Program-made: the position numbers and the translations under genes
In this document: piece after piece, positions 47,021 through 53,861 of the stretch
Position numbering within the stretch: position 1 is the first letter of the stretch
Layout of the letters: every line of letters starts with the position of its first letter
NCBI RefSeq assembly: GCF_050320075.1
Contig: NZ_CP190018.1
Origin: Escherichia coli
Lineage (GTDB): Bacteria > Pseudomonadota > Gammaproteobacteria > Enterobacterales > Enterobacteriaceae
Strand: one strand, 5' to 3'
Length of the DNA: 64,000 nt
The notes under the pieces: model-generated
Told to the model about the DNA's origin: nothing
Seen by the model: the letters and a program-made list of their open reading frames with translations, nothing else
The model's database searches: none

Positions 47021-47611
47021 GTGACATGGCAAAATGATTACAGCAGGGACTATGAGGTTAAAAACCATATGGAATGTCAAAACCGTTCTGATAAATACAT
47101 CTGGTCTCCCCATGACGCCTACTTCTATAAAGGACTATCTGAACTGATTGTGGATATCGACAGATTAATTTATCTATCGCTGGAGAAAATCAGAAAAGAT
47201 TTCGTGTTTATCAATCTCAATACGGATTCTTTAACTGAGTTTATAAACCGTGATAATGAGTGGTTATCCGCGGTAAAGGGGAAACAGGTCGTATTGATTG
47301 CGGCCAGAAAGTCAGAAGCCTTAGCAAATTATTGGTATTACAACAGCAATATTAGGGGCGTGGTATACGCTGGACTGAGTCGTGATATTAGAAAAGAACT
47401 GGCCTATGTGATTAATGGCAGGTTCCTGAGAAAAGATATTAAGAAAGATAAAATCACTGACCGGGAAATGGAAATTATCCGCATGACGGCTCAGGGAATG
47501 CTGCCTAAATCGATTGCCAGAATTGAAAATTGTAGTGTGAAGACAGTGTATACCCATCGGCGTAATGCTGAGGCCAAGCTGTACTCAAAAATATATAAGT
47601 TGGTTCCGTAA
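47021..47611 (+). CDS. ecpR: LuxR-type transcriptional activator of the ecp operon, 196 aa
   Basis: [20 protein letters not shown]... with a C-terminal LuxR HTH ([38 protein letters not shown]). Confidence 0.9.
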
Positions 47612-47685
47612 ACTCCAGGCAAGTTAGTTTTAAAAAATGACTCACAGGGACATCACGTCCTCAATTCAACTCGGGAAGAAAAGCA

Positions 47686-48273
47686 ATGAAAAAAAAGGTT
47701 CTGGCAATAGCTCTGGTAACGGTGTTTACCGGCATGGGTGTGGCGCAGGCTGCTGACGTAACAGCTCAGGCTGTAGCGACCTGGTCAGCAACAGCCAAAA
47801 AAGACACCACCAGTAAGCTGGTTGTGACGCCACTCGGTAGCCTGGCGTTCCAGTATGCCGAAGGCATTAAAGGTTTTAACTCACAGAAAGGTCTATTTGA
47901 CGTAGCTATCGAGGGTGACTCAACGGCTACCGCCTTTAAACTGACCTCACGTCTTATCACCAACACCTTAACCCAGTTGGATACCTCAGGTTCCACACTG
48001 AATGTGGGCGTTGATTATAACGGCGCGGCAGTCGAAAAAACTGGCGATACCGTGATGATCGATACCGCCAACGGCGTACTGGGCGGCAACCTTAGCCCAC
48101 TGGCTAACGGTTACAATGCCAGCAATCGTACCACCGCACAGGATGGTTTCACTTTCTCCATCATCAGCGGCACCACCAATGGTACCACCGCAGTAACCGA
48201 TTACAGCACTCTACCGGAAGGCATCTGGAGCGGCGACGTTAGCGTACAGTTCGACGCTACCTGGACCAGTTAA
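47686..48273 (+). CDS. ecpA: E. coli common pilus major subunit, 195 aa
   Basis: Signal peptide [22 protein letters not shown] followed by a Thr/Gly-rich pilin domain. Confidence 0.9.
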
Positions 48274-51549: not shown

Positions 51550-53182
51550 CCTACTGATAGCGATGATAATCGTTGCGCTAATCTGGCCTGCAACCGCGCT
51601 CAGAGCGGCAGTGAGCAAAACCACCTGGGCGGATGCTCCGGCACGCGAGTTTGTGTTTGTCGAAAACAACTCAGACGACAACTTTTTCGTCACTCCTGGC
51701 GGGGCGCTGGATCCGCGCCTGACCGGTGCCAACCGCTGGACCGGTTTAAAATACAATGGTTCAGGAACCATCTATCAGCAAAGCCTCGGCTACATTGATA
51801 ACGGTTACAACACCGGCCTTTATACCAACTGGAAGTTTGATATGTGGCTGGAAAATTCACCAGTTTCATCTCCTTTAACTGGCTTGCGCTGCATCAACTG
51901 GTACGCTGGGTGTAATATGACCACCAGTCTTATCCTGCCGCAAACCACCGACGCCAGTGGATTTTATGGCGCGACGGTGACCAGCGGCGGCGCGAAGTGG
52001 ATGCACGGCATGTTGTCAGACGCGTTTTACCAGTATCTGCAACAAATGCCCGTCGGCAGCAGCTTTACAATGACCATCAATGCCTGCCAGACCTCTGTGA
52101 ACTATGACGCCAGCAGCGGCGCACGCTGTAAGGATCAGGCCTCCGGCAACTGGTATGTTCGCAACGTCACCCATACGAAAGCAGCAAATCTACGGTTGAT
52201 AAATACCCACTCGCTGGCGGAGGTGTTTATCAACAGCGACGGAGTACCGACTCTGGGCGAAGGGAACGCCGACTGCCGGACGCAAACCATCGGCAGCCGT
52301 TCAGGATTAAGTTGTAAGATGGTTAACTATACCCTGCAAACAAACGGACTCAGCAACACCTCAATCCATATATTCCCGGCGATCGCCAACTCGTCGTTAG
52401 CCTCGGCCGTCGGGGCGTACGATATGCAGTTCAGTCTGAATGGCAGTTCATGGAAACCGGTGAGCAATACTGCCTATTACTACACCTTCAACGAGATGAA
52501 GAGCGCAGACTCGATCTATGTTTTCTTCTCGAGCAACTTCTTTAAGCAGATGGTGAACCTCGGGATCAGCGATATCAACACCAAAGATCTATTCAACTTT
52601 CGCTTTCAGAACACCACATCACCGGAGTCTGGCTGGTATGAATTTTCTACCTCCAACACGCTGATTATCAAACCCCGTGATTTCAGCATCAGTATTATCT
52701 CCGATGAATATACTCAGACACCGTCGCGGGAGGGATATGTTGGCAGCGGCGAGTCGGCACTCGATTTCGGCTATATCGTAACCACCAGCGGTAAAACAGC
52801 TGCCGACGAAGTGCTGATCAAGGTGACCGGACCCGCGCAGGTGATTGGCGGGCGCTCCTATTGTGTCTTCAGCTCCGATGATGGTAAGGCGAAAGTACCG
52901 TTCCCGGCGACGCTTTCCTTTATTACCCGCAGCGGAGCTACAAAAACCTACGATGCCGGGTGCGATGATAGCTGGCGGGATATGACCGATGCGCTGTGGC
53001 TGACCACACCGTGGACTGATATCTCTGGCGAAGTGGGGCAGATGGATAAGACCACAGTCAAATTTTCGATTCCAATGGATAACGCCATTTCGCTGCGTAC
53101 GGTAGATGATAACGGCTGGTTTGGCGAAGTCAGCGCTTCAGGAGAGATTCATGTTCAGGCGACGTGGCGTAACATTAACTAA
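51539..53182 (+). CDS. ecpD: Ecp tip adhesin / polymerised minor subunit, 547 aa
   Basis: Signal peptide [23 protein letters not shown]. Overlaps ecpC by 11 nt. Confidence 0.85.
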
Positions 53183-53861
53183 GGCCCTGCTGACAGTGGT
53201 CTGTATGCTGGCGGCACCTTTGACACAGGCGATTTCGGTCGGCAATCTGACTTTTTCACTGCCGTCCGAGACTGACTTTGTCAGCAAACGTGTAGTGAAT
53301 AACAACAAAAGCGCACGGATATACCGTATTGCCATCAGTGCTATTGATAGCCCGGGCAGCAGTGAATTGCGCACCCGACCGGTGGATGGTGAACTGCTTT
53401 TCGCCCCCCGCCAGCTGGCGTTGCAGGCTGGTGAGAGCGAGTATTTTAAATTTTACTATCATGGTCCACGGGATAACCGCGAGCGCTACTACCGGGTCTC
53501 ATTTCGCGAGGTCCCCACTCGTAACCTGACAAAACGCAGCCCTACCGGCGGTGAGGTCAGCACGGAGCCGGTGGTGGTGATGGATACCATTCTGGTAGTA
53601 CGACCACGTCAGGTTCAGTTTAAATGGTCCTTCGACCAGGTGACAGGAACGGTAAGTAACACTGGCAACACATGGTTTAAGCTACTGATTAAGCCAGGAT
53701 GTGATTCGACCGAAGAGGAAGGCGATGCCTGGTATCTACGTCCGGGAGAGGTGGTTCATCAGCCTGAGTTACGTCAGCCGGGGAATCATTATCTGGTCTA
53801 TAACGACAAATTCATTAAGATTAGCGATTCCTGTCCGGCTAAGCCCCCTTCGGCGGACTAA
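53151..53861 (+). CDS. ecpE: Ecp second periplasmic chaperone, 236 aa
   Basis: Signal peptide [27 protein letters not shown]. Paralogous to EcpB (shared [15 protein letters not shown] / [15 protein letters not shown] motif). Confidence 0.85.

Follow-up and report, generated by a model that had tools for sequence, protein, structure and literature searches.

The Escherichia coli common pilus (ECP, also known as Mat) is an adhesive fibre that participates in attachment and biofilm formation and is present in most E. coli. Here, we have examined a stretch of 64,000 nucleotides (nt) of E. coli DNA (NCBI RefSeq assembly GCF_050320075.1, contig NZ_CP190018.1), referred to below as the window, in which positions 47021-53861 and the preceding AT-rich control DNA of approximately 470 bp almost certainly represent an intact chromosomal copy of the ecpRABCDE (matABCDEF) operon that is maintained by purifying selection.

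Open reading frames (ORFs) were listed over positions 45000-56000 and start codons were then taken from reference annotations. The operon consists of six genes with the same orientation on the plus strand, in the order regulator, pilin, chaperone, usher, adhesin and chaperone. The first gene, ecpR (matA; 47021-47611), encodes a regulator with a helix-turn-helix (HTH) of the LuxR/GerE type and begins either with a GTG (196 amino acids, aa) or with an alternative ATG at 47069 (180 aa). It is followed by ecpA (matB; 47686-48273), coding for the major pilin of 195 aa with a heuristically predicted signal peptide of 22 aa, and by ecpB (matC; 48330-48998), coding for a periplasmic chaperone of 222 aa that complexes EcpA, the mechanically called ORF of which starts 48 nt earlier at 48282. 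The next two genes are ecpC (matD; 49024-51549), whose product of 841 aa was recognized as the outer-membrane usher on the basis of domains and annotation, and ecpD (matE; 51539-53182), which encodes the polymerising tip adhesin (547 aa). The last gene, ecpE (matF; 53151-53861), encodes the second EcpB-type chaperone (236 aa), and here the mechanically called ORF starts at 53106. Gaps of 74, 56 and 25 nt separate ecpR from ecpA, ecpA from ecpB and ecpB from ecpC, respectively, and the original prediction, made from the sequence of the window, was exact with regard to the two overlapping junctions, ecpC/ecpD (11 nt) and ecpD/ecpE (32 nt). The GC content of ecpR was 39.8%, compared with 53.9% for ecpA-E and 49.9% for the window.

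Identity and integrity of the operon

All 64,000 nt of the window were identical to a segment of the genome of E. coli YZLc1-3, an isolate from chicken faeces (NZ_CP123240.1:3895582-3959581), and the RefSeq annotation of that genome therefore applies directly to the window. This annotation, produced by the Prokaryotic Genome Annotation Pipeline (PGAP), names ecpR, ecpA, ecpB, ecpC, ecpD and ecpE, with the order and boundaries given above except for the start of ecpR (see below), and contains no pseudogene flag for any of these genes. No internal stop codon could be identified in any of the six ORFs. When positions 45500-54600 were used as a megablast query against 5,426 complete E. coli genomes, the ecp locus was matched in 5,299 of them, with a query coverage of at least 80% in 4,924, and an identity of 100.0% over this 9.1-kb region was reported for several genomes. 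The locus is flanked by ykgR, ykgM, ykgO and ykgL on one side and by ykgJ, yagU and paoA on the other, and the same neighbours are found in K-12.

An alignment with ecp/mat references had been suggested as a check with the original prediction. In the K-12 MG1655 reference (b0294-b0289, NC_000913.3 304495-311336), gene order and strand arrangement are the same as here and the six proteins have equal lengths, with an aa identity of 97-100% (EcpR, 190/196; EcpA, 195/195; EcpB, 219/222; EcpC, 831/841; EcpD, 541/547; and EcpE, 230/236). Nucleotide identity over the ecp region was 97-99%, and both overlaps, the intergenic spacing, a hairpin located after ecpA and the flanking genes (ykgM/ykgO/ykgL and ykgJ/yagU/paoA) were alike as well. 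The copy in the window differs from that of K-12 in a synonymous divergence of 6.1%, in the intergenic DNA between ykgO and ecpR (92.2% identical), in a frameshifted ykgL and in the RefSeq start of ecpR, which lies 48 nt downstream of the start in the K-12 record. A Nei-Gojobori count of the ecp genes of the window against those of K-12 yielded overall proportions of nonsynonymous and synonymous differences of pN = 0.006 and pS = 0.061 (pS range 3-9%), and the ratio of nonsynonymous to synonymous divergence (dN/dS) was between 0 and 0.37 for each gene, which suggests that the ecp genes have been kept functional by purifying selection. Thus, the earlier statement that all six genes are intact is borne out by the lack of internal stops, the K-12 lengths, the absence of pseudogene flags and these dN/dS values.

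Family and structure searches assigned most of the products to known members of the ECP system. EcpR contained the GerE/LuxR HTH domain (PF00196) at residues 145-187 and matched the NCBIfam equivalog NF047921 over residues 17-195 with 336.6 bits (cut-off 300). EcpA matched both Pfam MatB (PF16449; 327.8 bits, cut-off 27, 1.7e-98) and the NCBIfam equivalog NF047910 (315.6 bits, cut-off 200), as well as the PDB entries 3QS2 and 3QS3 (3QS2 at 1.8e-106). In EcpB, the EcpB_C domain (PF18649) and a match to PDB 5DFK (2.1e-132) were identified, and EcpD matched the NCBIfam equivalog NF047911 with 1017.6 bits (cut-off 900). The usher EcpC contained CooC_C (74.4 bits, cut-off 29) and TcfC E-set (67.9 bits, cut-off 29) domains, and no classical usher family of the PapC/FimD type was reported for it in the Pfam domain search. 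Both domains are named after ushers of alternative-pathway systems, those of the CS1 pili and of Salmonella Tcf. No solved structural relative of EcpC or EcpD was detectable by sequence search. EcpE is a paralogue of EcpB (30% identity, E = 3e-26) that also matched PDB 5DFK (2.9e-20), and its sequence clearly points to the product of a second EcpB-type chaperone gene.

Signal peptides had been predicted where they would be expected, and our heuristic analysis agreed with this. EcpA-E all had a basic N-terminus and a hydrophobic core, with a best 10-aa Kyte-Doolittle mean of 2.2-3.5, and the putative cleavage sites were AQA22 in EcpA, AQA20 in EcpB, ASA29 in EcpC, LRA23 in EcpD and TQA27 in EcpE. 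No signal-peptide features could be observed in EcpR by the same heuristic (best Kyte-Doolittle mean -0.35). If EcpA and EcpB are cleaved after AQA, the residues of both mature proteins fall on their published numbers, which provides independent corroboration of the heuristic signal peptides of these two proteins. In mature EcpA, residue 11 is Trp and residues 147-149 are Ala-Val-Thr. Trp11 is the residue that is inserted into the neighbouring subunit, the N-terminal extension being used for donor-strand exchange (PMC4654587, PMC3601411), and the Ala147-Val148-Thr149 loop forms a contact between fibres (PMC3601411); the importance of these EcpA residues has been demonstrated by mutagenesis. 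Pro60, Arg89, Ala111, Ala113, Ala115, Ile117, Arg148 and Tyr169, the positions of mature EcpB that have been studied by mutagenesis (PMC4654587), were all present. The set of residues of this non-classical chaperone thus includes the invariant Pro, the Arg/Tyr two-domain carboxylate anchor and the G1 donor residues, and the residues of EcpE that align with Pro60, Arg89 and Tyr169 in an EcpB/EcpE alignment are also kept.

Upstream region and start of ecpR

It had been proposed that ecpR is preceded by about 1 kb of AT-rich DNA typical of a silenced, tightly regulated promoter. AT-rich DNA was indeed found: the mean GC content of the 1,031 bp between the ecpR GTG and a point just beyond the ykgO stop codon (45990-47020) was 36.7%, versus 49.9% for the window. 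However, this span includes a frameshifted ykgL and a 305-bp stretch with 45.9% GC, and the strongly AT-rich part was limited to 471 bp immediately upstream of ecpR (46550-47020, 28.5% GC). The promoter-like sites described below, and the majority of the TTCCT boxes, are located in this part. The proposed type of promoter is in agreement with the literature, in which H-NS has been reported to repress the ecp promoter (PMC5651002, citing Martinez-Santos 2012).

The start of ecpR had been placed at 47021. This corresponds to the GTG used in the K-12 record (U00096/NC_000913; 196 aa), whereas RefSeq PGAP and the NCBIfam model NF047921, which has 180 positions, begin at ATG 47069 (180 aa). A GGAAAG precedes GTG 47021 at short spacing, and a GAGG is located 11 nt upstream of ATG 47069. 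A sigma-70 promoter has been published for ecp, from which transcription begins 121 bp ahead of the start codon of ecpR. The best sigma-70-like match in the region, TTGACA-18 nt-TAAATT (46863-46892, plus strand; 10/12), has a predicted start at approximately 46900, 121 nt upstream of GTG 47021, and a second match, TTAAAA-17 nt-TATATT (46911-46939, plus strand; 9/12), has a predicted start at approximately 46948, 121 nt upstream of ATG 47069. Since each candidate start codon has a promoter-like site at this distance, the published distance alone picks neither of them. It should be noted that promoter-like matches as a class were not enriched in the upstream region (8 versus 10.1 in shuffled sequences). 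The ecpR forward primer of the Giron and Puente laboratories, GTGACATGGCAAAATGATTACAGC (PMC4103759), is an exact match to positions 47021-47044. As it begins at GTG 47021, these laboratories may count from the GTG, and we therefore favour TTGACA-18-TAAATT (46863-46892) as the candidate ecpR promoter, the second site being less likely.

TTCCT is reportedly the EcpR box and occurs as two boxes upstream of the promoter according to Martinez-Santos and colleagues in 2012. Three TTCCT boxes on the plus strand, starting at 46689, 46711 and 46844 (span 46689-46848), are candidate EcpR sites by motif match, and further boxes start at 46420 on the plus strand and at 46316 and 46875 on the minus strand. 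Six occurrences of this motif, any two of which may be the functional pair, were counted on both strands of 46246-47020, compared with 1.6 expected (P = 0.004).

The region 46246-47068 was bimodal in the 5,065 E. coli records examined. Approximately 2,200 records, including avian pathogenic (APEC) and uropathogenic (UPEC) E. coli, had an identity of at least 95% (about 99%), and approximately 2,800 records, including K-12 and Shiga toxin-producing E. coli (STEC), had an identity of about 92.5%; among 40 evenly sampled records, no identities between 92.7% and 98.7% were observed. The window thus carries the APEC/UPEC-type upstream allele and not the K-12/STEC type. Special regulatory selection on this region was considered and rejected: the region differs from that of K-12 by about 7.5%, a value near that for synonymous sites of the ecp genes, and this looks like neutral divergence between lineages. 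Hidden genes or RNAs in the part with normal GC content (46246-46616) were also considered and rejected: the two ORFs found there (within 46307-46616; 96 aa on the minus strand and 74 aa on the plus strand) had no Pfam match even at E<=1 and are unannotated in both K-12 and PGAP, and Rfam yielded nothing in this part. A scan with Rfam over 44000-56000 (E<=1) identified no RNA family in the ecp operon or its leader; apart from IS009, which lies downstream of ykgJ, no match was confident. Within the upstream span, ykgL (46020-46245, minus strand) is a frameshifted pseudogene in the window and is intact in K-12 (75 aa).

Assembly, expression and alternative readings

The present analysis shows which operon this is, that it is intact and how it is laid out; the mechanism outlined below, which is taken from the literature on the same operon, and expression in this strain are inferred. 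Transcription would start from a sigma-70 promoter approximately 121 nt upstream of ecpR. H-NS would silence this promoter, and EcpR/MatA, the LuxR-type HTH protein predicted from the first gene, would activate it together with IHF and RcsB; as the activator would be the product of the first gene, the circuit would be auto-activating. The major pilin EcpA and the tip adhesin EcpD would then be exported by Sec and held in the periplasm by EcpB and EcpE, both chaperones of the EcpB type. Polymerisation of the subunits at the usher EcpC would proceed by donor-strand exchange, in which the N-terminal extension of EcpA with Trp11 fills the groove of its neighbour, and the resulting flexible fibre would promote adherence and early biofilm formation. 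In previous studies, activation of the ecp promoter by EcpR and IHF (PMC10038029) and the cooperation of MatA/EcpR with RcsB (PMC5651002) have been described, and ecp expression was found to increase when the pH is acidic, when the temperature is low or when acetate is present (PMC5651002). EcpD has been described as a polymerised tip adhesin, and EcpA as the shaft component responsible for the entwining of fibres and for biofilm formation at an early stage (PMC3601411). ECP assembly belongs to the alternative chaperone-usher pathway (PMC4654587, PMC10038029), and the presence of two chaperones in one system has been regarded as unusual (PMC10038029). The original prediction had classified the system in the same way, as an alternative chaperone-usher type with two chaperones, which agrees with these reports as well as with the CooC_C and TcfC domains of the usher, the identification of EcpB with 5DFK and the resemblance of EcpE to EcpB.

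With regard to other known systems, the ECP/Mat of enterohaemorrhagic (EHEC), enteropathogenic (EPEC), uropathogenic and neonatal meningitis (NMEC IHE3034) E. coli is the same operon, its likeness being seen in the exact fit of the published EcpA and EcpB numbering and of the ecpR primer. In these strains, ECP/Mat has been studied by Rendon (2007), Pouttu (2001), Garnett (2012), Martinez-Santos (2012) and Lehti (2010-2013). Class 5 systems of the CS1 and CFA/I type (CooBACD and CfaABCE) and Tcf of Salmonella Typhi have usher domains (CooC_C and TcfC E-set) and non-classical chaperones in common with ECP. In contrast with these systems, ECP contains two chaperones of the EcpB subfamily instead of one of the CfaA type, a polymerising tip adhesin of 547 aa that belongs to no Pfam family, and a LuxR-type regulator as its first gene. 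Homologues of ecp have been reported to be conserved in Klebsiella, Enterobacter and Serratia (PMC3601411, PMC4103759). The copy in the window is a conventional one of an already known system whose structure, assembly and regulation have been published, and ECP/Mat is among the best-distributed adhesins of E. coli, so that the importance of this locus as a discovery is small.

Nothing was counted against the ecp identity of the locus. Several points nevertheless limit the detail of this reading. The signal-peptide test was a heuristic that considered a basic N-terminus, a hydrophobic core and a small-x-small site, and not SignalP. EcpE showed only a sub-threshold match to PapD_N and matched no NCBIfam model, and EcpC reached no curated cut-off of a dedicated family model and was identified by domain matches and annotation. 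Sequence alone decides neither of the two ecpR starts (47021 or 47069), and hence not the exact promoter. Finally, expression in this strain cannot be read from the sequence. The region can be annotated with confidence, and two annotation points remain, namely the ambiguity of the ecpR start and the AT-rich promoter DNA, which is about half as long as originally thought.

The alternative that survives best concerns the expression state and is compatible with an intact operon: it is possible, although we consider it rather unlikely, that silencing by H-NS is dominant here and that the operon is effectively cryptic, with little or no pilus being produced. The low GC content of the 471-bp upstream region and the published repression by H-NS, with low temperature, acetate and acidic pH reported as the only inducing conditions (PMC5651002), are consistent with such a state. 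However, all six genes are under strong purifying selection, as would be expected of an operon in use, and the upstream allele of the window is about 99% identical to that of APEC and UPEC strains. A background of the APEC/UPEC type reportedly expresses Mat fimbriae, according to a study by Lehti in 2013.

A decaying operon, in which at least one gene would be a pseudogene despite its open frame, appears very improbable. Broken genes do occur in the window (the frameshifted ykgL, betI with an internal stop, the truncated paoB/paoC and a gene interrupted by IS150), but this possibility is essentially refuted by the uninterrupted frames of K-12 length, the intact key residues, the low dN/dS values and the lack of any pseudogene flag by PGAP. 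That another alternative-pathway cluster, similar to CS1/CFA-I or Tcf, was mistaken for ecp is hardly conceivable: the usher does contain CooC_C and TcfC domains and weakly matched the TcfC equivalog (31.5 bits versus a cut-off of 1428), but this reading is refuted by the scores of EcpR, EcpA and EcpD above the cut-offs of their own equivalogs, by the nucleotide identity of 97-99% to K-12 ecp and by the same neighbouring genes.

Hairpins and other features of the window

A GC-rich hairpin with an 8-bp stem and a 4-nt loop (48289-48308, plus strand; -14.5 kcal/mol) is located 16 nt past the ecpA stop codon and is followed by TTTATT. The only difference from K-12 in the ecpA-ecpB spacer is a 1-nt indel in the loop of this hairpin. 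The 84-nt context of the hairpin folded no better than shuffled sequences (z = -0.77). We tentatively suggest that it might terminate transcription partially after ecpA, or stabilise the 3' end of an ecpRA transcript, and that pilin (and regulator) would thereby be made in large excess relative to the chaperones, the usher and the adhesin, although this is doubtful. In classical pilus operons, a comparable role has been described at the genes of the major subunits. No description of the ecpA-ecpB stem-loop for ecp was found in a literature search that was loosely worded and thus uninformative.

A second hairpin (54109-54137, plus strand) is located approximately 250 nt past the ecpE stop codon and 36 nt before the start of ykgJ. 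It has a 10-bp stem, a 9-nt loop and a tail rich in U, with -15.5 kcal/mol when folded in a context of 60 nt, and could be the terminator of ecp or part of a ykgJ leader. Between the ecpE stop codon and this hairpin, terminator-like sites were not called on the plus strand. Further downstream, a full-length Rfam match to the candidate small RNA IS009 (RF02111) covers 54546-54746 on the minus strand in the spacer between ykgJ and yagU, with 187.8 bits (gathering score 117).

Other observations concern genes elsewhere in the window. A full-length gene for the inverse autotransporter adhesin FdeC (fdeC; 33524-37774, minus strand; approximately 1,416 aa) is accompanied by several aldo/keto reductase and LysR genes, whereas in the adjacent K-12 stretch examined only the pseudogene remnants eaeH and ykgP could be found. 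At 3416-5849, an IS150 element (IS3 family) splits a gene for the substrate-binding protein of an autoinducer-2 ATP-binding cassette (ABC) transporter into two pseudogene fragments, as annotated by RefSeq in the identical genome. The gene betI (19658-20245, plus strand), encoding the repressor of the bet operon for the conversion of choline to glycine betaine, is listed in the annotation among the pseudogenes because of an internal stop, and betT, betB and betA are intact. In paoB-paoC (56458-59205, plus strand), paoB is without its C-terminus and paoC without its N-terminus, the two fragments overlap at 57226-57243, and paoA and paoD are intact; the fragments look like the result of an internal deletion that would inactivate the periplasmic aldehyde oxidoreductase.

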